A stretch of DNA of 64,000 nt from the sequence record ON528727; one strand, written 5' to 3'. Below, one piece after another: positions 3,739 to 47,075 of the stretch. This DNA comes from Shigella phage ESh17. Below the pieces are notes generated by a model, which was not told the origin of the DNA, made no database searches, and saw nothing but the letters and a program-made list of their open reading frames with translations. Each line of letters opens with the position of its first letter. Position 1 is the stretch's first letter. A program made the translations under genes and the position numbers.

Positions 3739-4388
3739 TTAAACTCCGCATGCCTGCTGGTGGTGAAAGATATATTGATGGTAAATCAGTTTATAAATTA
3801 TACTTAATGATAAAACAACATATGAATGGAAAGTATGATGTAATTAAGTATAATTGGTGCATGCGGGTGTCTGATGCCGCTTATCAAAAGCGAAGGGATA
3901 AGTATTTTTTCCAGAAGTTATCAGAAAAATATAAATTAAAGGAACTTGCTTTAATCTTTATAAGCAATCTGGTTGCTAACCAAGATGCTTGGATTGGTGA
4001 CATCTCTGACGCTGATGCACTTGTGTTTTATCGTGAATATATCGGACGCTTAAAGCAAATTAAATTTAAGTTTGAAGAAGATATTCGCAATATTTACTAT
4101 TTTAGTAAAAAAGTTGAAGTTTCTGCTTTTAAAGAAATCTTTGAGTATAATCCAAAAGTTCAATCAAGTTATATTTTTAAACTACTTCAATCGAATATAA
4201 TTTCGTTTGAGACGTTTATCTTGCTTGATTCGTTTTTAAATATAATCGATAAACATGATGAACAGACTGATAATTTAGTCTGGAATAATTATTCTATAAA
4301 GTTAAAGGCTTATAGAAAAATTTTAAATATTGATTCACAGAAAGCTAAAAGTGTTTTTATTGAAACTGTGAAATCTTGTAAGTATTAA
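3735..4388 (+). CDS. 59: Helicase loader gp59
   Basis: 217 aa MIKLRMPAGGERYIDGKSVYKLY..., ATGA overlap with 33. Confidence 0.93.
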   Translation: MIKLRMPAGGERYIDGKSVYKLYLMIKQHMNGKYDVIKYNWCMRVSDAAYQKRRDKYFFQKLSEKYKLKELALIFISNLVANQDAWIGDISDADALVFYREYIGRLKQIKFKFEEDIRNIYYFSKKVEVSAFKEIFEYNPKVQSSYIFKLLQSNIISFETFILLDSFLNIIDKHDEQTDNLVWNNYSIKLKAYRKILNIDSQKAKSVFIETVKSCKY

Positions 4389-4396
4389 TTGCTTAT

Positions 4397-4404
4397 TATA
4401 AATA
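4397..4404 (+). promoter_or_regulatory. Late promoter TATAAATA upstream of gene 32
   Basis: TATAAATA immediately after gene 59 stop, adjacent to a TTGCTTAT MotA-like box. Confidence 0.5.
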
Positions 4405-4421
4405 GATTATAATTATCTCAC

Positions 4422-4487
4422 TGACCAGCTATGAGGTCATACATCGTCATAGCACCAACTGTTAATTAAATTAAAAAGGAAATAAAA
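4422..4487 (+). promoter_or_regulatory. 32: Gene 32 translational operator: leader pseudoknot plus A/U-rich gp32 binding region
   Basis: Interleaved stems TGACC...CTATGA...GGTCA...TCATAG (4422-4452) then TTAATTAAATTAAAAAGGAAATAAAA before the ATG. Confidence 0.7.
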
Positions 4488-5396
4488 ATGTTTAAACGTA
4501 AATCTACTGCTGAACTCGCTGCACAAATGGCTAAACTGGCTGGAAATAAAGGTGGTTTTTCTTCTGAAGATAAAGGCGAGTGGAAACTGAAACTCGACAA
4601 TGCGGGTAACGGTCAAGCAGTAATTCGTTTTCTTCCGTCTAAAAATGATGAACAAGCACCATTCGCAATTCTTGTAAATCACGGTTTCAAGAAAAACGGT
4701 AAATGGTATATTGAAAACTGTTCATCTACCCACGGTGATTACGATTCTTGTCCAGTATGTCAGTACATCAATAAAAATGATTTGTACAACACTGACAATA
4801 AAGAATACGGTCTTGTTAAACGTAAAACTTCTTACTGGGCTAACATTCTTGTTGTAAAAGACCCAGCTGCTCCAGAAAATGAAGGTAAAGTATTTAAATA
4901 CCGTTTCGGTAAGAAAATCTGGGATAAAATCAATGCAATGATTGCAGTTGATGTTGAAATGGGTGAAACTCCGGTTGATGTAACTTGTCCGTGGGAAGGT
5001 GCTAACTTTGTACTGAAAGTTAAACAAGTTTCTGGTTTTAGTAACTACGACGAATCTAAATTCCTGAATCAATCTGCGATTCCAAACATTGATGATGAAT
5101 CTTTCCAGAAAGAACTGTTCGAACAAATGGTTGACCTTTCTGAAATGACTTCTAAAGATAAATTCAAATCGTTTGAAGAACTGAGCACTAAGTTCAGTCA
5201 AGTTATGGGAACTGCTGCTATGGGTGGTGCCGCAGCAACTGCTGCTAAGAAAGCCGATAAAGTTGCTGATGATTTGGATGCATTTAATGTTGATGACTTC
5301 AAAACAAAAACTGAAGATGATTTTATGAGCTCAAGCTCTGGCAGTTCATCTAGTGCTGATGACACGGACCTGGATGACCTTTTGAATGACCTTTAA
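4488..5396 (+). CDS. 32: Single-stranded DNA-binding protein gp32
   Basis: [24 protein letters not shown]..., acidic Ser/Asp-rich C-terminus, upstream pseudoknot leader. Confidence 0.97.
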
Positions 5397-7744: not shown

Positions 7745-8605
7745 ATGAAACAATACCAAGATTTAATTAAAGACATTTTTGAAAATGGTTATGAAACCGA
7801 TGACCGAACAGGCACAGGAACAATTGCTTTGTTCGGTACTAAATTACGCTGGGATTTAACTAAAGGTTTTCCTGCAGTAACAACTAAGAAGCTCGCCTGG
7901 AATGCATGTATTGCTGAGCTTCTATGGTTTATTTCCGGTTCTACCAATGTTAATGATTTACGTCTTCGCACTCATGGTAGTCTTATTCAAGGTAAAACTA
8001 TTTGGGACGATAACTATGAAAACCAGGCTAAAGACCTAGGATATCATAGTGGTGAACTTGGTCCAATTTATGGAAAACAGTGGCGTGATTTTGGCGGTGT
8101 AGACCAAATTATAGAAGTTATTGATCGTATTAAAAAACTGCCAAATGATAGGCGTCAAATTGTTTCTGCATGGAATCCAGCTGAACTTAAATATATGGCA
8201 TTACCGCCTTGTCATATGTTCTATCAATTTAATGTTCGTAACGGATACCTTGACCTCCAGTGGTATCAACGTTCGGTAGATGTTTTCCTCGGTCTTCCAT
8301 TTAATATTGCATCATATGCTACGTTAGTTCATATTGTAGCTAAGATGTGTAATCTTATTCCGGGAGATTTGATATTTTCTGGCGGTAATACTCATATCTA
8401 TATGAATCACGTAGAACAATGTAAAGAAATTTTACGTCGTGAACCTATGGATTTATGCGAATTGCAATTAAAATTTCCAGATGAATTTGATGAATGGGAC
8501 ACAGAGTCGCAGGTATTTTGGTTGAGTCAATTCGCAAAGCCGCATAATTTTGTTCTTAACAACTATGAATCACACCCTCCTATTAAAGGAAAGATGGCGG
8601 TGTAA
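7745..8605 (+). CDS. td: Thymidylate synthase (uninterrupted, no intron)
   Basis: 286 aa [26 protein letters not shown]... with PCH active-site motif; continuous ORF. Confidence 0.97.
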
Positions 8606-9169: not shown

Positions 9170-11424
9170 TTAATGTTATCAAAAGTAGTGGTGTTTCTCA
9201 GAGCTTTGACCCGCAAAAAATTATTAAAGTTTTATCTTGGGCAGCTGAAGGAACATCAGTAGATCCTTATGAATTATATGAAAACATTAAATCTTATCTC
9301 CGTGATGGAATGACAACTGATGATATTCAGACTATTGTCATTAAGGCTGCTGCGAATTCTATTTCGGTTGAAGAACCTGATTATCAATATGTAGCTGCAC
9401 GCTGTTTAATGTTTGCTCTTCGTAAGCATGTTTACGGGCAGTATGAACCGCGTTCATTTATTGACCATATTTCTTACTGTGTAAATGAAGGTAAATATGA
9501 CCCTGAATTATTGTCAAAATATTCAGCAGAAGAAATTACATTTTTAGAATCAAAAATTAAGCACGAGCGGGATATGGAATTTACTTATTCCGGGGCGATG
9601 CAATTAAAAGAAAAATATCTAGTTAAAGATAAAACCACTGGTCAAATTTATGAAACTCCACAGTTTGCGTTTATGGCTATTGGAATGGCACTGCATCAAG
9701 ATGAACCTGTTGATAGATTAAAACATGTTATCCGTTTTTATGAAGCAGTATCAACCCGACAGATTTCATTGCCAACTCCTATTATGGCTGGTTGTCGTAC
9801 TCCGACTCGACAGTTCAGTTCATGTGTTGTTATTGAGGCAGGAGATTCGTTGAAGTCTATCAATAAGGCTTCCGCTTCAATTGTTGAATATATCTCTAAA
9901 CGCGCTGGAATTGGTATTAATGTTGGTATGATTCGTGCCGAAGGTTCTAAGATTGGCATGGGTGAAGTACGCCATACTGGTGTTATTCCTTTTTGGAAAC
10001 ATTTTCAGACTGCAGTTAAATCATGTTCACAGGGTGGAATTCGTGGCGGCGCTGCTACTGCTTATTATCCTATTTGGCATTTGGAAGTTGAAAATCTTCT
10101 CGTTTTGAAAAATAACAAAGGCGTAGAAGAAAACCGCATCCGTCATATGGATTATGGTGTTCAGTTGAATGATTTGATGATGGAACGATTTGGAAAGAAC
10201 GATTACATTACTTTGTTCAGTCCGCATGAAATGGGTGGCGAGCTTTATTATTCTTATTTTAAAGACCAAGACCGTTTCCGTGAATTATACGAAGCAGCAG
10301 AAAAAGACCCTAATATTCGTAAAAAGCGTATTAAAGCCCGTGAACTATTTGAATTGCTCATGACTGAACGTTCAGGAACAGCAAGGATTTATGTACAGTT
10401 CATTGATAATACGAATAACTATACTCCGTTTATTCGTGAAAAGGCACCTATTCGTCAAAGTAACTTGTGCTGTGAAATTGCTATTCCAACAAATGATGTG
10501 AATAGCCCTGATGCTGAAATTGGGTTGTGTACTCTCTCTGCATTTGTGTTGGATAACTTCGATTGGCAAGACCAAGATAAAATTAATGAATTGGCAGAAG
10601 TTCAAGTTCGTGCTCTTGATAATCTTTTGGATTACCAAGGATATCCAGTTCCTGAAGCAGAAAAAGCTAAAAAGCGTCGAAACCTTGGTGTAGGTGTTAC
10701 TAACTATGCAGCTTGGCTGGCAAGTAACTTTGCTTCTTATGAAGATGCTAACGATTTAACACATGAACTATTTGAGAGATTACAGTATGGACTCATTAAA
10801 GCATCCATTAATCTCGCCAAAGAAAAAGGACCTTGCGAATATTATTCAGACACTCGTTGGTCTCGAGGCGAATTACCTATCGACTGGTACAATAAAAAGA
10901 TTGACCAAATCGCAGCTCCAAAATACGTTTGTGACTGGTCGTCGCTGCGGGAAGACCTTAAGCTCTTTGGCATCCGTAATAGCACATTATCAGCACTTAT
11001 GCCATGTGAGTCATCTTCCCAAGTTTCTAACAGTACAAACGGTATCGAGCCTCCACGTGGACCAGTCTCTGTTAAAGAATCAAAAGAGGGCTCCTTTAAT
11101 CAAGTCGTGCCCAATATTGAGCATAACATAGACCTCTATGATTATACATGGAAATTAGCTAAGAAAGGTAATAAACCTTATCTTACGCAGGTAGCTATTA
11201 TGCTGAAATGGGTTTGTCAATCAGCTTCGGCGAATACATACTATGACCCGCAGATTTTTCCAAAAGGAAAGGTTCCAATGTCAATAATGATTGATGACCT
11301 TTTGTATTTTTGGTATTTTGGCGGAAAAAATTTCTATTATCATAATACCCGTGATGGTTCTGGTACTGATGATTATGAAATAGAAACTCCAAAAGCTGAA
11401 GATTGTTCATCCTGTAAATTATGA
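9160..11424 (+). CDS. nrdA: Aerobic ribonucleotide reductase large subunit
   Basis: 754 aa, ATP-cone N-terminus and class I RNR catalytic core. Confidence 0.97.
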   Translation: MQLINVIKSSGVSQSFDPQKIIKVLSWAAEGTSVDPYELYENIKSYLRDGMTTDDIQTIVIKAAANSISVEEPDYQYVAARCLMFALRKHVYGQYEPRSFIDHISYCVNEGKYDPELLSKYSAEEITFLESKIKHERDMEFTYSGAMQLKEKYLVKDKTTGQIYETPQFAFMAIGMALHQDEPVDRLKHVIRFYEAVSTRQISLPTPIMAGCRTPTRQFSSCVVIEAGDSLKSINKASASIVEYISKRAGIGINVGMIRAEGSKIGMGEVRHTGVIPFWKHFQTAVKSCSQGGIRGGAATAYYPIWHLEVENLLVLKNNKGVEENRIRHMDYGVQLNDLMMERFGKNDYITLFSPHEMGGELYYSYFKDQDRFRELYEAAEKDPNIRKKRIKARELFELLMTERSGTARIYVQFIDNTNNYTPFIREKAPIRQSNLCCEIAIPTNDVNSPDAEIGLCTLSAFVLDNFDWQDQDKINELAEVQVRALDNLLDYQGYPVPEAEKAKKRRNLGVGVTNYAAWLASNFASYEDANDLTHELFERLQYGLIKASINLAKEKGPCEYYSDTRWSRGELPIDWYNKKIDQIAAPKYVCDWSSLREDLKLFGIRNSTLSALMPCESSSQVSNSTNGIEPPRGPVSVKESKEGSFNQVVPNIEHNIDLYDYTWKLAKKGNKPYLTQVAIMLKWVCQSASANTYYDPQIFPKGKVPMSIMIDDLLYFWYFGGKNFYYHNTRDGSGTDDYEIETPKAEDCSSCKL

Positions 11425-11475
11425 TATAATTTGACTCACGGACGAGTCACCAACTATTAACTAAGCGGAAAATTT

Positions 11476-12654
11476 ATGAGCACAGTTTTTAATACAAATC
11501 CAGTTGATGTTTTAAAAGAACCTATGTTTTTTGGTTCAGGTCTTGGTATTGCGCGTTATGATATTCAACGTCATAAAGTTTTTGAAGATTTAACCGAAAA
11601 GCAATTATCATTTTTCTGGCGTCCTGAAGAAGTAAACTTGATGATGGATGCTGCACAGTTTAATAAGCTTCCTCAGTATCAGAAAAATATTTTTACTAAT
11701 AATCTGAAATATCAATCACTTTTGGATAGCATTCAGGGTCGTGCGCCGTCTGCTGTACTTATGTCATTAATTTCAGACCCAAGCCTTGATACATGGGTTG
11801 CTACGTGGACTTTTAGTGAAACTATTCACAGCCGTTCATATACACATATCATGCGAAATCTTTATACTGATCCATCGAAGGTGTTTGATGAGATTGTATT
11901 AGATGAAGCTATTATGAAACGTGCTGAATCCATTGGACGTTATTATGATGATGTTCTGATTAAAACTCGTTATTGGGAAAACGCTAAAGCTGATATCAAA
12001 TACCAAAAAGAAATTAATGCAGACGAAGACGTTATTGAAGATGCTATTGAGCATGAGACATATTGGAAGCATGAGCTAATGAAATCTCTTTACCTCTGTT
12101 TGCATGTAATCAACGCATTGGAAGCTATTCGTTTTTATGTATCTTTCGCATGTACCTTTAACTTCCATAAAAACATGGAAATCATGGAAGGTAATGCCAA
12201 GATTATGAAGTTCATTGCGCGCGATGAGCAACTTCACCTTAAAGGCACTCAATATATTATTCGTCAGCTTCAATCCGGTACTGATGGTGATGAATGGGTT
12301 AAAATTGCTCAAGAGTGTGAACAAGAAGCAGTTGATATTTTCATGGAAGTTAACCGCCAAGAAAAAGATTGGGCGGTTCATTTATTTAAAGATGGCGATG
12401 TTCCTGGATTAAATACAAATAGCATGTGGAGCTTTATTGATTACTTAACTGTATCTCGTATGAAACAGTGTGGTCTTCCATGCCCAATTACCGATGCTCC
12501 GGTTAAACATCCATATCCTTGGATTCGTGAATATCTTAATTCTGATAATGTTCAATCCGCGCCACAAGAAGTAGAACTGTCATCTTATCTTGTTGCACAG
12601 ATTGATAATGATGTTGATGATAAAGTTATGATGAGTTTTAAAAAATATTTTTAA
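11476..12654 (+). CDS. nrdB: Aerobic ribonucleotide reductase small subunit (uninterrupted)
   Basis: 392 aa MSTVFNTNPVDVLKEPMFFGSG..., continuous ORF. Confidence 0.96.
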   Translation: MSTVFNTNPVDVLKEPMFFGSGLGIARYDIQRHKVFEDLTEKQLSFFWRPEEVNLMMDAAQFNKLPQYQKNIFTNNLKYQSLLDSIQGRAPSAVLMSLISDPSLDTWVATWTFSETIHSRSYTHIMRNLYTDPSKVFDEIVLDEAIMKRAESIGRYYDDVLIKTRYWENAKADIKYQKEINADEDVIEDAIEHETYWKHELMKSLYLCLHVINALEAIRFYVSFACTFNFHKNMEIMEGNAKIMKFIARDEQLHLKGTQYIIRQLQSGTDGDEWVKIAQECEQEAVDIFMEVNRQEKDWAVHLFKDGDVPGLNTNSMWSFIDYLTVSRMKQCGLPCPITDAPVKHPYPWIREYLNSDNVQSAPQEVELSSYLVAQIDNDVDDKVMMSFKKYF

Positions 12655-37794: not shown

Positions 37795-38018
37795 TGAGAT
37801 ATAGCATTGATGATGCTTTTAATTATGAAGAAGAATTTGAAACTGAGATTCAATTCTTAATGAAAAAGCATAATCTTAAGCGTCAGGATATTCGTATCCT
37901 GGCCGACCACCCGTGTGGTGAAGATGTCCTTTATATTAAAGGAAAATTTGCCGGATATCTTGATGAATATTTTTATTCTAAAGATATGGGCATTGATATG
38001 CATATGAGAGTTATATAA
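37794..38018 (+). CDS. Hypothetical protein (uvsY.-1 position)
   Basis: 74 aa ORF, ATGA overlap with uvsY. Confidence 0.6.
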   Translation: MRYSIDDAFNYEEEFETEIQFLMKKHNLKRQDIRILADHPCGEDVLYIKGKFAGYLDEYFYSKDMGIDMHMRVI

Positions 38019-38046
38019 ATAGATATATAATTTAGAGGAGACAATC

Positions 38047-38214
38047 ATGTCAGATAAGATTTGCGTTGTCTGTAAAACTCCAATCGATTCTGCATTGGTT
38101 GTTGAAACAGACAAAGGTCCTGCACATCCTGGGCCTTGTTATAATTACATTAAAGAACTACCAGTTTCAGAAAGTTCGGAAGAACAATTAAATGAAACGC
38201 AACTTTTGCTATAG
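38047..38214 (+). CDS. Small Cys-rich hypothetical protein (uvsY.-2 position)
   Basis: 55 aa ORF (below track cutoff) MSDKICVVCKTPIDS...PGPCYNY; SD GAGGAG and TATAAATA upstream. Confidence 0.45.
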   Translation: MSDKICVVCKTPIDSALVVETDKGPAHPGPCYNYIKELPVSESSEEQLNETQLLL

Positions 38215-38237
38215 TGTGACCTTTAGTCTATAGTTTT

Positions 38238-38266
38238 GGCCCTTCCTTTTTGGTTGGGCCTTTTTT
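38238..38266 (+). terminator. Terminator after uvsY operon
   Basis: GGCCC...GGGCC stem followed by TTTTTT. Confidence 0.5.
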
Positions 38267-38269
38267 AAT

Positions 38270-38500
38270 TTAAAAGCTTTCTTCTACTTCATCGTCTGAA
38301 TCTTCTAATTCAGCTCTTTTTCCTGCCAAAGCATCTCTGACTGAGATGTCATCAGTATCTTTTAATTCAGTTTCTTTAACTCTTTTCTTATAATAAGCTT
38401 CAAGTTCTTCTAAACCTTCTAATGTTTGACAAGAGGCAATTTTACCCATAAATTCATCAATAGAAGCTTCATAAAGAAATTGTTTAAATTCTAGTAACAT
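38270..38500 (-). CDS. uvsW.1: UvsW.1 small protein
   Basis: 76 aa from first ATG (track starts at TTG 38512). Confidence 0.7.
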   Translation of the reverse strand: MLLEFKQFLYEASIDEFMGKIASCQTLEGLEELEAYYKKRVKETELKDTDDISVRDALAGKRAELEDSDDEVEESF

Positions 38501-38525
38501 CTTTTTCTCCAAAGGGCCGAAGCCC

Positions 38526-40034
38526 TTATAAATTAACTGTTTTCATTACGTAATTAAATTTTTCATCTGCGTAGCGCTGAATACGATCAATGCCGTGTTT
38601 TAAAAGATAGTTTAAATGAACATATTTCTTTTTCGTATTAGCAGATTTTGGCTTAACACCACAATCATCTATGAGGTCCCAGACTGTTGCTATTGTCTTA
38701 GAACCATGCTTACGTAATACACGACCGATTGTTTGTAATACAATGATTTTTGATTTAACACCATGCGCTAAAACAACGTGATGCAGATTTTTAACTGAAA
38801 TACCAGTAGAAAATACACCATAACTAGCTACTATAATTATTCCTTTACCATTTTCAGCTAAGGTTTTCATTATATTGCGGGTTTCGGTATCAACTTCCCC
38901 TGATACGTAATAAACTTTATCGTACTCATTTTTAATTAAATCGAAAATAGCTTTACCATGTGATACATGTTTAAACATGACAAAAGCGTTTTCATCTTTT
39001 TGCGCAAGCTTAATAGCTAATTTAGCGATCCATTTATTTCTTTTACTAAGCCCCGTAATAATTTTTATTTCTTCTTGATAAGTTTTTCCCTTTAATTTAG
39101 TAGTGAACTCATCGGGATAGCGAAGAAAAATACTATTAATTTTTAGCTCAGTTACTTGTCCATCTTCCATTAACTTAGAAGTCGTTACTGGCTTAAATAT
39201 TTCACCAAACATTCCAACATACTGCATGATATTGGCTTTGCCATCACGTAATGAACCAGATAGACCAAATTTGAACATGCAGTTATTTAAACCTGATATG
39301 ATGGATGAAATACTTTTTCCTGTAGCAAGATGACATTCATCATTCATCATCATTCCAAACTGTGAGAACCATTCTTTCGGTTGTTTTACTACAGTTTGCC
39401 ATGTACCAACAACGACTGGTGCATCATTTTTATATTTATCATCTTTTGATGCTCCGCCACCAATTTTCTTTATCATTGCATGACTGAATAAACGATAGTC
39501 AACGAAGTCATCAGCCATCTGAGTTGTCAGAGCAGTTGTTGGAACAATGATAAGAATTTTGCCTTCATAATTTTCCAAATAATATCGCGCAAGCAAAGCT
39601 TGAATTAAAGATTTACCAGCGGATGTTGGAAGATTAAGAATTCTACGACGATTAACTAATCCTTCGAACACTGCATCTTTTTGATACCAGTGTGGTTCAA
39701 TTCTTTTATTTCCTGAATAGATTTCTAATTTAGAAAGCCATTCATCAAAATCTTTTCTTGATAATTCTTCTTTTTCGTTAATTTGTGGGTCAATCCAGGC
39801 TTTATAGCCAAAGTTATCACAGAACTTTTTAATTTGCCCGACTAAGCCGAATGGAAGAAGACGATTATAATCTAAAAGACGGATTCGTCCATCCCAGTTG
39901 CCATATCTGAAGCGAGGATTAAACCTATATCCATCGGCCTCAAACGAAAAGAAATCTCTTAATTCGTGGAACGTGCTCTCTTCACAATCGATGCGTACAT
40001 GGCTGAAGTCGTGAAAATGTACTTTAATATCCAT
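38526..40034 (-). CDS. uvsW: UvsW DNA/RNA helicase
   Basis: 502 aa, SF2 helicase motifs (PTSAGKS, DECH). Confidence 0.93.
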   Translation of the reverse strand: MDIKVHFHDFSHVRIDCEESTFHELRDFFSFEADGYRFNPRFRYGNWDGRIRLLDYNRLLPFGLVGQIKKFCDNFGYKAWIDPQINEKEELSRKDFDEWLSKLEIYSGNKRIEPHWYQKDAVFEGLVNRRRILNLPTSAGKSLIQALLARYYLENYEGKILIIVPTTALTTQMADDFVDYRLFSHAMIKKIGGGASKDDKYKNDAPVVVGTWQTVVKQPKEWFSQFGMMMNDECHLATGKSISSIISGLNNCMFKFGLSGSLRDGKANIMQYVGMFGEIFKPVTTSKLMEDGQVTELKINSIFLRYPDEFTTKLKGKTYQEEIKIITGLSKRNKWIAKLAIKLAQKDENAFVMFKHVSHGKAIFDLIKNEYDKVYYVSGEVDTETRNIMKTLAENGKGIIIVASYGVFSTGISVKNLHHVVLAHGVKSKIIVLQTIGRVLRKHGSKTIATVWDLIDDCGVKPKSANTKKKYVHLNYLLKHGIDRIQRYADEKFNYVMKTVNL

Positions 40035-40036
40035 AA

Positions 40037-40654
40037 TTATGCCTTACTAAATTTGCCTTTAGAATCTCTTTTCATGAGACGACCTTTAATAAATCCGTCG
40101 GGAATAATACCGTCTGGTTGTATTAATTTATTTATTGCACCATTATTGACCCAAAAAGTTCCTGTGGTAGTTGGTTTGACTTTACATCCTTTTCTGGACT
40201 TTCTATTAGGATGAACCATCCCTTTTACAAATCCTTCTGGAACAAGTTCTCCAGGTTTAATAAAAATATTTTTAGTTCCATTAGTGTAACAAGTTGTACC
40301 TAATACCGTGCCCGGTGAGTTTTCAAATCTCTTAGCGGAAGATTCTTTCATCTTTGCTATAACCTCTGTAGTCATAACAATTCCACCAATTCCACCAGGT
40401 TTCATATTATAATAATTTTTGCTTTTTATTATTTCAGGAGTTATAATTTCTTCTTCATACATGTACGCTTCTTCGGAAGTTTTAAACTCTTTTAGTATTG
40501 TTCTAGAGAAATTGTTTTCACCATATTTCTTTATAGCCTGCTGAATTGCCTTACCGGAACCAAGGTAACCATCATTCAAGTCATCAGTAGAGTGTTTTCC
40601 TATATACTTTTTACCATTTATTAGATTTGTTGTTTCATATACAAAGTGGTACAT
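40037..40654 (-). CDS. segE: GIY-YIG homing endonuclease, SegE-like
   Basis: 205 aa MYHFVYETTNLINGKKYIGKHS (GIY-YIG motif); sits between uvsW and inh/hoc where T4 segE lies. Confidence 0.82.
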   Translation of the reverse strand: MYHFVYETTNLINGKKYIGKHSTDDLNDGYLGSGKAIQQAIKKYGENNFSRTILKEFKTSEEAYMYEEEIITPEIIKSKNYYNMKPGGIGGIVMTTEVIAKMKESSAKRFENSPGTVLGTTCYTNGTKNIFIKPGELVPEGFVKGMVHPNRKSRKGCKVKPTTTGTFWVNNGAINKLIQPDGIIPDGFIKGRLMKRDSKGKFSKA

Positions 40655-40682
40655 ACTATTTTCCGAGTAATAAATATATCTA

Positions 40683-40690
40683 TATTTATA
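40683..40690 (-). promoter_or_regulatory. Late promoter TATAAATA for segE
   Basis: TATTTATA on plus strand 29 bp upstream of segE start. Confidence 0.5.
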
Positions 40691-40703
40691 CTGAGGAAAT
40701 ATT

Positions 40704-41384
40704 ATGATAGATAAAGATTATATTGCAGAGCTGAAGGCTCTTGATGATAACAAAGAAGCTAAAGCTAAATTAGCTGAATATGCTGAACAGTTTGGTATAA
40801 AGGTCAAAAAGAATAAATCTTTTGATAATATCGTTGTTGATATTGAAGAAGCCCTCCAGAAGCTCGCTAGTGAACCTATGCCAGAGACTGATGGGTTATC
40901 TATTAAAGACTTAATTGATGCTGCTGATGCTGCAGAGGGATTAAAATATGACGATGAAGAAGTCAATCCAGAAGCAGCACTTCTGATTGATTCTCCGGTT
41001 AAATCTGACATTAAAATTGAAGTAGTAGAAACGGATAAAATTCCTGAAAATACCGATGTTTTGATTGAAGATACTCCTTTTGTTGAAGAAAAATTTGAAC
41101 AGGCTGTAGCTGAAATTATTGAATCTGAAAATCCGTCTGTATTTACTCTTCCGGAAAACTTTAGCCCGAATCTTCAGTTGATTGGAAAAAATCCAGGATT
41201 CTGTACTGTTCCTTGGTGGATTTATCAATGGATTGCTGAAACTCCGGATTGGAAATCTCACCCAACAAGTTTTGAGCATGCGTCAGCACACCAAACTTTA
41301 TTTAGCTTAATTTACTACATTAATCGTGACGGATCAGTTCTAATTCGTGAAACACGTAATTCTTCTTTCGTAACATTAAAATAA
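40704..41384 (+). CDS. inh: Inh, inhibitor of prohead protease gp21
   Basis: 226 aa acidic ORF between segE and hoc; position as T4 inh. Confidence 0.75.
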   Translation: MIDKDYIAELKALDDNKEAKAKLAEYAEQFGIKVKKNKSFDNIVVDIEEALQKLASEPMPETDGLSIKDLIDAADAAEGLKYDDEEVNPEAALLIDSPVKSDIKIEVVETDKIPENTDVLIEDTPFVEEKFEQAVAEIIESENPSVFTLPENFSPNLQLIGKNPGFCTVPWWIYQWIAETPDWKSHPTSFEHASAHQTLFSLIYYINRDGSVLIRETRNSSFVTLK

Positions 41385-41393
41385 GGATAATTT

Positions 41394-42524
41394 ATGACTT
41401 TTACAGTTGATATAACTCCTAAAACGCCTACTGGAGTTATAGATCAGACTCAGCAGTTTACTGCTACACCCAGTGGTCAAACTGGAGATGGACCTATTAC
41501 ATATGCTTGGACTGTAGACGACGCTCCGCAGGAAGAAACGTCAGCAACTTTTAGTTATGTACTAAAAGGACCTGCCGGTCAAAAAACTATTAAAGTAGTT
41601 GCAACAAACCCAGTTCCAGATACTGATGCTGAAACAGCAGAAGCTACTACAACTATCACAGTTCAAAATAAGACACAGACAACTACTTTAGCTGTAACTC
41701 CTGATAGTCCTTCAGTTGGAGTAATTGGAACCCCAGTTCAATTTACTGCTGCCTTATCTTCTCAACCAGTTGGAGCGTCTGCTACGTATCAATGGCACGT
41801 TGACGGTTCTCCTGTAGGCGAAGCAACTTCTGCTACATTCAATTACACTCCTACCACAAGTGGAGTAAAAAGAATTAAATGCGTAGCCCAAGTAACTGCT
41901 GAAAATTACAATGAAAAGGAAGTTACTTCGAATGAAGTATCATTAACAGTTAATAAGAAGACAATGAATCCACAGGTTACATTGACTCCTCCTTCTATTA
42001 ACGTTCAACAAGATGCTTCGGCTACATTTACTGCTAATGTCACTGATGCACCAGAAGAAGCACAAATTGCTTATTCATGGAAGAAAGATTCTTCTCCCGT
42101 AGAAGGATCAACTAATGTGTATACCGTTGATACGTCATCTGTTGGAAGTCAAACTATTGAAGTTACTGCTATCGTTACGGCAACTGATTATGATAGTAAA
42201 ACTATTACAGCAGAAGGTCAAGTTCAAGTGACTGATAAAGTTGCTCCAGAACCAGAAGGTGAATTACCTTATGTTCATCCTCTTCCACACCGTAGCTCAG
42301 CTTACATCTGGTGCGGTTGGTGGGTTATGGATGAAATCCAAAAAATGACCGAAGAAGGTAAAGATTGGAAAACTGATGATCCAGATAGTAAGTACTACTT
42401 GCATCGTTACACTCTTCAGAAAATGATGAAAGACTATCCAGAAGTTGATGTTCAAGAATCACGTAATGGATACATCATTCACAAAACTGCTTTAGAAACT
42501 GGTATCATCTATACCTATCCATAA
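41394..42524 (+). CDS. hoc: Hoc, highly immunogenic outer capsid protein
   Basis: 376 aa with repeated Ig-like segments. Confidence 0.9.
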   Translation: MTFTVDITPKTPTGVIDQTQQFTATPSGQTGDGPITYAWTVDDAPQEETSATFSYVLKGPAGQKTIKVVATNPVPDTDAETAEATTTITVQNKTQTTTLAVTPDSPSVGVIGTPVQFTAALSSQPVGASATYQWHVDGSPVGEATSATFNYTPTTSGVKRIKCVAQVTAENYNEKEVTSNEVSLTVNKKTMNPQVTLTPPSINVQQDASATFTANVTDAPEEAQIAYSWKKDSSPVEGSTNVYTVDTSSVGSQTIEVTAIVTATDYDSKTITAEGQVQVTDKVAPEPEGELPYVHPLPHRSSAYIWCGWWVMDEIQKMTEEGKDWKTDDPDSKYYLHRYTLQKMMKDYPEVDVQESRNGYIIHKTALETGIIYTYP

Positions 42525-43103: not shown

Positions 43104-44108
43104 ATGTTTAAAAAGTATAGCAGTCTTGAAAATCATTACAACTCTAAATTTATTGAAAAACTTTACAGCTTGGGATTGACTGGCGGCGAATGGGTAGCTC
43201 GTGAAAAGATTCACGGCACAAATTTCTCGTTGATTATTGAGCGTGATAAAGTGACTTGCGCTAAACGTACTGGACCGATTCTTCCTGCTGAAGATTTCTT
43301 CGGTTATGAAATTATTTTAAAGAATTACGAAGATTCTATTAAAGCTGTCCAAGAAATTATGGAAACTTCAGCTGTTGTGACTTATCAAGTTTTTGGCGAA
43401 TTCGCTGGACCTGGCATTCAGAAGAATGTTGATTATGGCGATAAAGATTTTTATGTATTTGACATTATTGTCACTACCGAAAGTGGTGATGTAACTTATG
43501 TTGATGATTACATGATGGAATCGTTTTGTAATTCATTTGGGTTTAAAATCGCTCCACTTTTGGGTCGTGGTAAATTTGAAGATCTTATTAAACTTCCAAA
43601 TGATTTGGATTCTGTTGTTCCGTCTTATAATTTTACCGTAGATAATGCAGGTTTAATTGACGCTAACAAATGTGTTTGGAAAGCTGAAGCCAAAGGCGAA
43701 GTATTTACCGCTGAAGGATATGTATTGAAACCTTGCTATCCTTCTTGGCTGCCTAATCGCAATCGTGTAGCCATCAAATGCAAGAATTCTAAATTTAGTG
43801 AAAAGAAAAAGTCTGATAAGCCTATTAAAGCTAAAGTTGAACTGTCAGAAGCTGATAACAAATTGGTGGGGATTTTAGCTTGTTACGTTACACTAAACCG
43901 AGTAAATAACGTTATTTCTAAAATTGGCGAAATTGGTCCAAAAGATTTTGGAAAGGTGATGGGACTAACTGTTCAAGATATTTTGGAAGAAACTTCTCGT
44001 GAAGGTATTACTCTAACTCAAGCGGATAATCCTTCTTTGATTAAAAAGGAATTAGTTAAAATGGTACAAGATGTACTTCGTCCGGCTTGGATTGAATTGA
44101 ATTGGTAA
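43104..44108 (+). CDS. rnlB: RNA ligase 2
   Basis: 334 aa with nucleotidyltransferase motif I KIHGTN. Confidence 0.93.
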
Positions 44109-44142: not shown

Positions 44143-45426
44143 TTATTCATCAATGATAATTTTTGGTAGCTTAACACCTAATAAAACAGACAAATCTGAA
44201 CGACCCGCCATTTTATCCATGTCTCCACCATCAATTACTCTTGCTTCTTTTTCATCTTTTGCTACGGTGTAAGGATTTGCAGATAAAGCATATCTAACTA
44301 ATAAACCGATAGACGGTTGCAAGCTTTCTGGATCAACAACAACTTTAAATGCACCTACATGTTCAGGGTCATCTAAGTCGAGACCTTCTGTATACGGAGC
44401 ATAGAAAATTGATCCAACAATTTCTTTTTCACCGATATTTTCTACTACGCCAACGATTACATAATCTAATGGGCTGTTAGTATCGCAATAAAGTGGTAAA
44501 CCATTAGCTAAAAACCCATAGGCATTTTGTGAAAGATATTTATCATCTTCTGGTTTATGTTTTAACCAACCTGATGCAGCAAGAATCGCGGCGGCACGAG
44601 CAGAAGCTACACAGAACGTTGCTGTATAAGTTGATTCTTTTTGGATATGCGAAACCATTTCACATACCATTCGGTATAATGAACGACCAGCTTCAGGAGC
44701 AGATGCATAACTCAAATCAATGAATCCGGTATCAGTAATTCCTGTAACTTTATAGCGTTTTGACACTGTAATCAAAGACTGCAGAATATCTTTATTGATT
44801 TCATCTGCCATTTCAGTTGCAAGCAAATCTTCTAAGAAATTAGGAGCATCGAATCCATTTGCTTCTAAATCTTGCGCTAATTCAACTGTGATGCCAGTTT
44901 TAAGTTTACGAGATTTAACCGCGGTTTGCCATTTATTAATCTGGAATCTAGCATCCGCAATTTCACTATCAGAGCTTTCAAATTTGCTTGTTACTGCAGC
45001 ATCAGAAAATAGACGAACCTTTAAAAGAACGATTGCAATCTGAAGAGCTAATTCTAAATCGCTTTCTTCAATATCAGCAAATGGTGTATCTTCTAATACT
45101 TTATAAACGATATTATTATATTTGAATAAATCGCCTTTATTGAGAGTTAATTTAGACTCTTCTGTTAATTCTGTGATTTGTTCTCGGTCTACGTATCCAG
45201 CTTCGCCAGCGTAAGTAGCACCAGTTTTAAATGTAAATTCATTGTCTGGGTTAAGGTATTTGATACCATAAAAAGCAGCAACAGGTTGATTAGTTCTTTG
45301 TGTTGCTACAATGTCAGAATATATTAATTTAGTGGTAGCGCGAGTCAAAGCAACGAGATTTGGGCGACCGATTGAGTTGCTATTCGTTGTGGTTGATTCG
45401 CGCAGAAGTTCGTTGATTTTAGCCAT
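44143..45426 (-). CDS. 24: Head vertex protein gp24
   Basis: 427 aa, paralogue of major capsid protein. Confidence 0.93.
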   Translation of the reverse strand: MAKINELLRESTTTNSNSIGRPNLVALTRATTKLIYSDIVATQRTNQPVAAFYGIKYLNPDNEFTFKTGATYAGEAGYVDREQITELTEESKLTLNKGDLFKYNNIVYKVLEDTPFADIEESDLELALQIAIVLLKVRLFSDAAVTSKFESSDSEIADARFQINKWQTAVKSRKLKTGITVELAQDLEANGFDAPNFLEDLLATEMADEINKDILQSLITVSKRYKVTGITDTGFIDLSYASAPEAGRSLYRMVCEMVSHIQKESTYTATFCVASARAAAILAASGWLKHKPEDDKYLSQNAYGFLANGLPLYCDTNSPLDYVIVGVVENIGEKEIVGSIFYAPYTEGLDLDDPEHVGAFKVVVDPESLQPSIGLLVRYALSANPYTVAKDEKEARVIDGGDMDKMAGRSDLSVLLGVKLPKIIIDE

Positions 45427-45453
45427 TGCGCTTTCCTTTTGGTTTATATGATT

Positions 45454-45461
45454 TATTTATA
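45454..45461 (-). promoter_or_regulatory. Late promoter TATAAATA for gene 24
   Basis: TATTTATA 28 bp upstream of gene 24 start. Confidence 0.6.
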
Positions 45462-45478
45462 CCATAAAAACAACTAAA

Positions 45479-45494
45479 GGGACCCGAAGGTCCC
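45479..45494 (-). terminator. Hairpin after gene 23
   Basis: GGGACC-cgaa-GGTCCC between gene 23 stop and gene 24 late promoter. Confidence 0.5.
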
Positions 45495-45509
45495 TTAAAT
45501 CGTCAAAGA

Positions 45510-47075
45510 TTAGATACCTTTAACATATACACGGCGGAAGTAAGCGTTTTTACCAAGGCTATTCAGAATAGAAGGCATACCGCTTTGGATGCGAGAAGCC
45601 GGAGCCTGAGCAGCGGATTCTGCAAATGGGTTGATACCGATACCGTAACGAGTTTTGAATCCCATTACTGGTTGGAAGTTCTTCGGATCGGAACCACGCA
45701 GCGGAGTCAGCGCTACATATGGAGCGTAGTAAATACCAGCATCCATTTCGTTCGGACCTTTATAACCTACAGTGAAATAATCCTGTTTAGCATACTGGTC
45801 GATATATACGCGGTATTTACCACCCAGAACACCAGCAAATACTGACTTGGTAGTATCAGTGTTAAAGCCGGTAGCCAGACCCTGTGCAGCATAAGAAATG
45901 CCGGTATCAACTGAAGCCAGAACGTTAACTACGTTACGGGAAGCGATAATGAAGTTACCTTCACCACGACCGGTCTGACGAGCAATTTCAACTGCTTCTT
46001 TGTCAATCTGGAACAACAGAGCTTTAAAGGATTCACCCGCCCAGCGAGCACCACGAATATCAATCGGATCCTGGAAGTCAAATACACCAGCTTTAGAACC
46101 CGGAGTCAGGGTCATACCAGATTTACCAACCTGTGCGGAGTAGTTAATCCAATCAACAACTTCACGGTTGATTTCTAGCATGATTTCGGTAGCCAGAATA
46201 CCAGACAGTTCAGCATCAGCATCCATACCGTGAACAGCGCGGAGGTCTTGTGCTAATTCGATAGAGTAAGCAGCTTTCAGCTGGCGAGATTTAGCTTCGA
46301 TAACTTGTTTATCGATACGGAAGCCCATTTCATTCCATGGGTTATCGGTAGAACCATTGAAACCTTCCTGAAGTTCAGCGATAGAAGTAGCCATGCCTTC
46401 AGCGATTTCTACCAGTACACCAGCTTCCATTTGTTTCTTAACTTCGGCATCTAATTTAGCAGCATCAGTCGCACCAGCATCAATTGTTACTACAGCGGAA
46501 GCTTGCAGATATACAGTGCCAGTTTCCTGGAAGAAGTGAGAATAGATGTCACCTACAACGGTTTGTGTGCTAGCAGCCAGAGCTGGGAATTTCTTAGCAG
46601 CACCCTGACCAGAGAACATTGCATCTGGACCATACATTGGGTGGAATGCTTCTTTAGCACCGGCAGCCACTGGGTCTTTACCATATACTGCGCGCAGTGC
46701 GAATACCTGGCCAGTCGGGCTGTTCATCGGCTGAACACCACAAATATCGAAAGCAATCAGGTTAGGAATAGCACGACGTACCATACCCATAACAGCTGGG
46801 CCAATCTGGGTTACTGCGCCAGAAGTCTGACCTGCAGCGATGTTAGTAGCATTGTAACCATGGTCACCGCCGATTTCAGCTTCTGTTAAGAAAGAACCAA
46901 ATGCCTGAGCAATTTTTTCGTCTTTATATTCCGGAGCTGTCTGGAAATCTTTTTCCTGGTTTTCAAAGATTTTAGCGATAATCGCTTGTTTGCTATTAGC
47001 AATTTCCGGTAAACCTTCACCTTCCAGTAATGGCTTCCATTTGTTCAAAAGTTCAGCTTTAGTTTTGATAGTCAT
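45510..47075 (-). CDS. 23: Major capsid protein gp23
   Basis: 521 aa MTIKTKAELLNKWKPLLEGEGLPEIANSKQAIIAKIF... Confidence 0.97.
   Translation of the reverse strand: MTIKTKAELLNKWKPLLEGEGLPEIANSKQAIIAKIFENQEKDFQTAPEYKDEKIAQAFGSFLTEAEIGGDHGYNATNIAAGQTSGAVTQIGPAVMGMVRRAIPNLIAFDICGVQPMNSPTGQVFALRAVYGKDPVAAGAKEAFHPMYGPDAMFSGQGAAKKFPALAASTQTVVGDIYSHFFQETGTVYLQASAVVTIDAGATDAAKLDAEVKKQMEAGVLVEIAEGMATSIAELQEGFNGSTDNPWNEMGFRIDKQVIEAKSRQLKAAYSIELAQDLRAVHGMDADAELSGILATEIMLEINREVVDWINYSAQVGKSGMTLTPGSKAGVFDFQDPIDIRGARWAGESFKALLFQIDKEAVEIARQTGRGEGNFIIASRNVVNVLASVDTGISYAAQGLATGFNTDTTKSVFAGVLGGKYRVYIDQYAKQDYFTVGYKGPNEMDAGIYYAPYVALTPLRGSDPKNFQPVMGFKTRYGIGINPFAESAAQAPASRIQSGMPSILNSLGKNAYFRRVYVKGI

Follow-up and report, generated by a model that had tools for sequence, protein, structure and literature searches.

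A segE-type free-standing homing endonuclease gene between uvsW and inh in Shigella phage ESh17

SegE of phage T4 is an active, mobile, free-standing GIY-YIG homing endonuclease whose gene is inserted between inh and uvsW and whose target is uvsW (Edgell et al. 2010, Table 1, PMC2988022). In T4 × RB30 crosses, SegE homing is almost 100% efficient; it requires an intact segE and homology, and the flanks of the gene are co-converted (PMC2330249). Cleavage by T4 SegE has been reported on RB30 and RB52 DNA (PMC2988022, PMC2330249), but these two papers place the cut differently, one within uvsW and the other in the intergenic spacer. The T4 SegE study of Kadyrov et al. 1997 is considered here as cited in these papers. 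Promoters embedded within such endonuclease genes favour retention of the genes (Edgell et al. 2010, PMC2988022).

Two further groups of T4 enzymes are relevant to SegE. SegA, SegB, SegC, SegF and SegG are likewise free-standing GIY-YIG endonucleases with intergenic genes that are optional in T-even phages and are co-inherited with flanking markers, but they have their own loci and their own targets. I-TevI, from the td intron of T4, resembles SegE in its catalytic fold, in the Tyr/Tyr/Gly/Glu/Asn positions and in the arrangement of an N-terminal nuclease and a C-terminal DNA-binding part. However, the two proteins are only about 25% identical, their C-terminal regions are unrelated in sequence, and I-TevI resides in an intron, which SegE does not.

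Here we analysed a 64,000-nucleotide stretch of the Shigella phage ESh17 genome (record ON528727), referred to below as the window. A preliminary description of the window had proposed a segE-like gene between uvsW and inh, and our results support this identification: the ORF is an orthologue of T4 segE. It differs from T4 segE at 8 nucleotides (98.8% identity), has the same locus and orientation, and belongs to a different Tequatrovirus phage.

The segE gene and its locus

In the ORF list, segE is a 205-aa minus-strand frame that runs from ATG to TAA, with the stop codon included in its coordinates (Table 1). T4 SegE has the same length. The length and strand agree with those given in the preliminary description, and the GIY-YIG N-terminus quoted there, MYHFVYETTNLINGKKYIGKHS, is matched exactly in the translation. 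The interval 40035–40703 comprises the entire gap from the uvsW start (40034) to the inh start (40704) and is wider than the segE ORF itself, whose stop codon is separated from the uvsW start by 2 nt. With the Pfam family PF19835 (SegE_GIY-YIG) the translated protein scores 37.6 bits, above the cut-off of 25, and it matches PHROG 314, annotated ‘homing endonuclease’, at E = 9e–44; a chance ORF can thus be dismissed. The Tequatrovirus Shigella phage ESh18 (ON528728.1) is 100% identical in this region, and its record annotates the ORF as ‘homing endonuclease’.

Table 1. Coordinates of segE, its neighbours and associated sequence features in the window
Feature	Position	Strand	Basis or remark
uvsW	38526–40034	–	502 aa; flanks segE
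Recoded uvsW 5′ end (nt 1–136), probable SegE target/immunity region	39899..40034	–	identity profile, exact counts
segE insertion relative to the empty site	40032..40666	–	635 nt replace 19 nt ATGGTATTTAGACATGACT; ESh18/T4/RB27 alignment
segE coding sequence, 205 aa	40037..40654	–	T4 SegE 202/205; PF19835 37.6 bits; ON528728.1 annotation
AAGG, Shine-Dalgarno-like, for uvsW	40042..40045	–	in last segE codons; 7 nt before uvsW ATG
C-terminal putative DNA-binding region, two motif copies	40076..40300	–	repeat in translation, predicted hairpins
AATAAATA within segE 3′ part	40129..40136	–	one mismatch to late consensus; 94 nt upstream of uvsW ATG
N-terminal GIY-YIG catalytic domain, ~residues 1–95	40370..40654	–	AlphaFold, I-TevI fold match, conserved residues
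AATAAATA, candidate divergent late promoter, inh/hoc	40669..40676	+	one mismatch; 27 nt upstream of inh ATG
T4-type late promoter TATAAATA	40683..40690	–	exact; 28 nt upstream of segE ATG
inh	40704–41384	+	226 aa; flanks segE
hoc	41394–42524		neighbour on the + side, next after inh

The gene is positioned between inh (hoc.1) and uvsW and is co-oriented with uvsW. Beyond inh the order continues with hoc, 24.3, 24.2 and rnlB, and on the other flank uvsW is followed by uvsW.1, uvsY.-2, uvsY.-1, uvsY and gene 25. Gene order at the segE locus is identical in T4, T6, RB14, RB3 and others, in line with the earlier suggestion that segE lies between conserved genes as in T4. In T6 (AP018814.1; locus 1338–2030) an extra gene for a 230-aa ‘homing endonuclease’ is found between uvsW and uvsW.1; in the window these two genes are only 13 nt apart (38513–38525), with no such endonuclease gene (38512–38526). 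segE itself appears in the T6 record under the wrong label, ‘tail tape measure protein’.

A more distant relative of the protein occurs in Yersinia phage MHG19, a member of Tevenvirinae outside Tequatrovirus (OQ331036.1; locus segment 2530–3180). This SegE-like protein (WCZ66372.1) is also encoded between uvsW and inh, and its first 22 residues are nearly identical to those of the window protein, but it is longer (216 aa), shares 41% identity overall, and has diverged in its middle and C-terminal regions. The C-terminal divergence suggests a different target specificity, and the shared position suggests an old link of this endonuclease lineage to the locus, with DNA-binding specificity changing over time.

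The window is without several of the homing endonuclease genes of T4, a phage that carries segG at 59/32, mobE at nrdA/nrdB and segD at 24/23 (PMC2988022). The corresponding gaps in the window are ~100 nt between genes 59 and 32 (4388–4488), 51 nt between nrdA and nrdB (11424–11476) and 83 nt between genes 24 and 23 (45426–45510), and the segG, mobE and segD sites thus look empty; nrdA and genes 32, 23 and 24 were identified by ORF size and synteny only. Both td (286 aa, 7745–8605) and nrdB (392 aa, 11476–12654) are uninterrupted. In T4 these two genes have introns with I-TevI and I-TevIII. Among the window sites checked, segE appears to be the sole gene of this kind.

Catalytic and putative DNA-binding parts of SegE

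In an alignment with T4 SegE, which the preliminary description had named as a check, 202 of 205 residues are identical, without gaps (E = 2e–154). The three substitutions relative to T4 SegE (I75L, E97D and T120K) are conservative, and none of them touches a conserved column when 50 full-length homologues are aligned. A database search with SegE returned 1412 homologues, many of them with PF19835, PF01541 or the NUMOD3 (PF07460) DNA-binding motif. The window protein itself scores 20.9 bits with the generic GIY-YIG model PF01541, under the cut-off of 22.6, although many of its homologues do carry this domain. Its GIY and YIG motifs are recognizable as FVY (residues 4–6) and YIG (residues 17–19), with the superfamily being defined by a spacing of about 10–11 residues between the two.

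Ten positions are invariant in the 50 homologues (Y6, Y17, G19, Y30, G32, S33, G34, N83, G87 and G88), and H21 and E67 are close to invariant, E67 being conserved in at least 90%. A profile search of PDB sequences returned I-TevI as its sole match and aligned Y6, Y17, G19, E67 and N83 of SegE with Y6, Y17, G19, E75 and N90 of I-TevI. Equivalents of the catalytic Glu (E75) and of the conserved Asn (N90) are therefore present, and at the conserved Tyr/Tyr/Gly/Glu/Asn positions, all of them intact, there is none of the disruption of catalytic residues that was to count against the identification. In the profile alignment Arg27 of I-TevI stands opposite a gap of 9 residues. The SegE family shows a deletion or rearrangement of this region and instead carries an invariant Y.GSG motif; K20 and the near-invariant H21 are candidates for the corresponding residue.

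An AlphaFold model built on the alignment of 50 homologues has a mean pLDDT of 85, with values of 94–98 for residues 1–80. The three best PDB fold matches of the model are the I-TevI catalytic domain, with entries 1mk0 and 1ln0 (probability 1.00, target-normalised TM 0.62, E = 2e–3, 96 columns, about 25% identity). I-TevI was thus reached by profile and fold searches and not by single-sequence phmmer, which against PDB gave chance-level matches only (a phage tail tube protein, E = 0.015) that we disregarded.

The C-terminal half of SegE contains two copies of a motif, NG..N..I.P....P.GF.KG (residues 119–146 and 165–193), each of them a predicted beta-hairpin (strands E121–132 and E167–178). 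Conserved residues in this region among the 50 homologues are G165, W168, G172, G191 and R192, and a PHROG of HNH endonucleases is matched at its C-terminal end by residues 154–199. NUMOD3 was not detected by Pfam in the window protein at E ≤ 1, though homologues carry it, and for this reason the repeat is left unassigned to NUMOD3. The two copies fit a modular DNA-binding region, which would be their probable role.

The empty site and the promoters of the spacer

The full segE interval is present at 97.7–100% identity in 166 phage records, T4, T6, RB3 and RB14 among them, and segE is conserved over its full length in these records. About 339 further records match just the 37 nt that adjoin inh, at 100% identity. 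In a more sensitive search that included the flanks, segE was found at full length in 162 of ~500 records with Tequatrovirus-level flank identity. About one third of Tequatrovirus records thus carry segE, a fraction that is approximate because the database is redundant (RefSeq/GenBank duplicates, T4 laboratory strains).

Comparison of segE and its flanks across these genomes reveals a presence/absence polymorphism with a constant difference of 616 nt: in every segE-less Tequatrovirus sampled the matched span is 1085 nt, versus 1701 nt with the gene. From inh through ...TATAAATATAGATATATTTATTAC the sequences of ESh18, T4 and RB27 are identical; at that point 635 nt in the segE-carrying phages stand against 19 nt in RB27. 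The 635-nt insertion contains the segE leader, the segE ORF and the uvsW start codon. The precise empty site in segE-less relatives agrees with the earlier description of seg genes as optional.

The same description had credited segE with its own late promoter. The T4-type late promoter sequence TATAAATA is indeed located upstream of segE, as it is in T4, and is overrepresented in the window (18 matches versus 8.8 ± 3.1 expected; none of 100 shuffles reached 18). It is not segE's own, however: TATAAATA with identical flanks is found in the 50-nt uvsW–inh spacer of the segE-less phages RB27 and Lutter, where uvsW follows it directly, and the depositors of the Lutter record (MT682714.1) marked it as a promoter on the minus strand. 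We therefore rejected the possibility that TATAAATA arrived together with segE. The comparison identifies TATAAATA as the resident late promoter of uvsW, captured by segE, and since empty sites share it, segE lies between the resident uvsW promoter and uvsW.

On the other strand of the spacer, the plus-strand AATAAATA facing inh has a counterpart annotated as a promoter at the matching position in Lutter. Together, TATAAATA (–) and AATAAATA (+) form a near-palindromic divergent pair (40669–40690), each element 27–28 nt from its start codon in this segE-carrying genome. The pair is 100% identical in segE-less phages, and both of its members are annotated promoters in Lutter.

Within the segE 3′ part, the second AATAAATA is a candidate embedded promoter for uvsW, and the AAGG in the last segE codons may serve as the uvsW Shine-Dalgarno sequence. 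A scan for terminator-like sites between segE and uvsW found none, and segE and uvsW are probably co-transcribed. Such an arrangement agrees with that described by Edgell et al. 2010 (PMC2988022). Neither the segE coding sequence nor its upstream region showed a MotA-box-like middle promoter. A sigma-70 promoter scan returned fewer sites than shuffles predict and is uninformative on early or middle expression.

The recoded uvsW flank and the proposed homing of segE

We compared the window with four segE-carrying and six segE-less relatives by sliding identity over 100 nt. In both groups identity is 95–100% across uvsW, inh and their neighbours, with the exception of the first ~136 nt of uvsW. 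In this block (39899–40034) identity is 97–99% to segE-carrying phages and 70–81% to segE-less phages. Exact counts against five segE-less phages give 33–36 differences per 136 nt (24–26%), versus 2.0–3.5% in the remaining 1373 nt of uvsW (Fisher test, P-value ≤ 2e–16), while among segE-carrying phages the block differs by just 1.5–2.2%. The differing codons comprise 21 synonymous and 5 non-synonymous changes, and the empty allele has one extra codon. T4 has the same recoded uvsW 5′ end as the window.

Variation was also observed elsewhere in the profile. Among relatives otherwise 95–100% identical, hoc (41400–42300) ranges from 51 to 99% identity per 100 nt, with Salmonella phage SG1 lowest, and the rnlB block (43200–43700) is 79–87% identical to the compared phages, Lutter excepted (100%). 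These patterns reflect mosaic exchange that is unrelated to segE.

The segE-type block was found at ≥95% identity in 157 records and adjoins segE in all of them (157/157); the RB27-type block, at the same threshold, was found in 325. Three segE-less phages are mosaic: UFV09, SHFML-11 and PD112 have the empty-type sequence near the site and the segE-type sequence from ~nt 80, 100 and 115 of uvsW, respectively. These mosaics would fit partial conversion tracts or a former loss of segE. The linkage of the recoded block to segE appears to fit a target-site or immunity block and co-conversion, and together with the varied mosaic breakpoints it is the expected trace of variable-length co-conversion tracts. 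The same linked flank and few mosaics lend indirect support to the localised gene conversion proposed in the preliminary description and, in this indirect way only, to a possible recombination hotspot, as it also claimed.

A fourth mosaic departs from the linkage. Escherichia phage SCS4 (ON506924.1) encodes a SegE protein identical to that of ESh18 and has an empty-type uvsW block immediately after the uvsW ATG (locus segment 1500–1671), the sole such combination among 158 records. The SCS4 and ECML-134 records are equally long (166,783 bp), so that SCS4 arose either by natural recombination or as a chimera during assembly. As a single record it could be an assembly artefact; if it is real, the donor may be protected by the insertion on its own, and the recoded block may then be dispensable for self-protection.

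Due to the published homing of T4 SegE and the near-identity of the protein and the locus, one would expect the same mechanism for the window gene, its cleavage and homing being carried over from the T4 literature. Late transcription of segE would start from TATAAATA, the promoter that would drive uvsW in segE-less phages. In a mixed infection, SegE would cut the DNA of a segE-less relative at or beside the uvsW start; the break would be resected and then repaired by the phage recombination machinery on the segE-carrying template. segE and its flanks would thereby be copied into the recipient, that is, intronless homing with co-conversion. The uvsW start of the donor would be shielded twice, by the insertion, which takes the place of 19 empty-site nucleotides, and by the mostly synonymous recoding of the first 136 nt, the latter being a presumed protective role. 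Only tentatively do we consider the alternative, which SCS4 would imply, that the recoded block is a hitch-hiking co-conversion tract, with SegE cutting near its own insertion site and the 19-nt replacement sufficing for protection. If true, SegE would resemble intron-encoded enzymes in cutting near its insertion site, unlike other Seg enzymes.

The gene very probably encodes a free-standing homing endonuclease, with nuclease and DNA-binding parts and homing as in T4, and three other readings were weighed against this one. Some records label the segE orthologue ‘group I intron endonuclease’, and SegE does match TIGR01453, the model of that name, but weakly: its 33.7 bits fall far short of the 56.05 that the model requires. 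No Rfam intron family was matched in 38000–42000, even at E ≤ 1, and the uvsW and inh ORFs are uninterrupted, with segE inserted in the intergenic spacer. The gene is free-standing and outside an intron; the lack of an intron match in Rfam and the TIGR01453 score below cut-off exclude the intron-encoded reading, to which we assign next to no probability. The sole sub-threshold Rfam match, to a Listeria sRNA within hoc, was taken as chance.

Expression signals of uvsW raise the question of whether segE could be a domesticated or decaying remnant that no longer cuts and is kept for these signals and for the position of the promoter. segE contains both the AAGG that resembles a Shine-Dalgarno sequence for uvsW and a near-consensus AATAAATA, embedded promoters of this kind would favour retention, as noted above for Edgell et al. 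2010, and segE alleles are only 3–9 nt apart, too few differences to demonstrate purifying selection by themselves. However, only three non-conserved positions separate the protein from the reportedly active T4 enzyme, all six compared segE copies are full length without an internal stop, the 41%-identical MHG19 homologue at the same locus retains the catalytic-domain motifs, and about two thirds of the relatives express uvsW without segE. Decay or domestication is hence unlikely, with only a slight chance of being correct. An active SegE, in turn, might be mainly a weapon between phages that acts by marker exclusion to the benefit of its carrier, with the same biochemistry as in selfish homing. 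The literature ties Seg endonucleases to T2 and RB30 marker exclusion (PMC2988022, PMC2330249), and the uvsW 5′ allele of segE-carrying phages is linked to segE almost perfectly; against this, the consistently co-inherited flank is small (~136 nt), and on sequence data such a role is indistinguishable from selfish homing. We regard it as possible but doubtful.

segE is an already known gene and the source record is already annotated, and the finding matters mainly for correct annotation, leaving the understanding of such elements unchanged. The comparative data could serve specialists as a natural set for mapping SegE recognition determinants and co-conversion tracts. The recoded ~136-nt block might be an immunity module that is transferred together with segE, and the mosaics might map SegE recognition.
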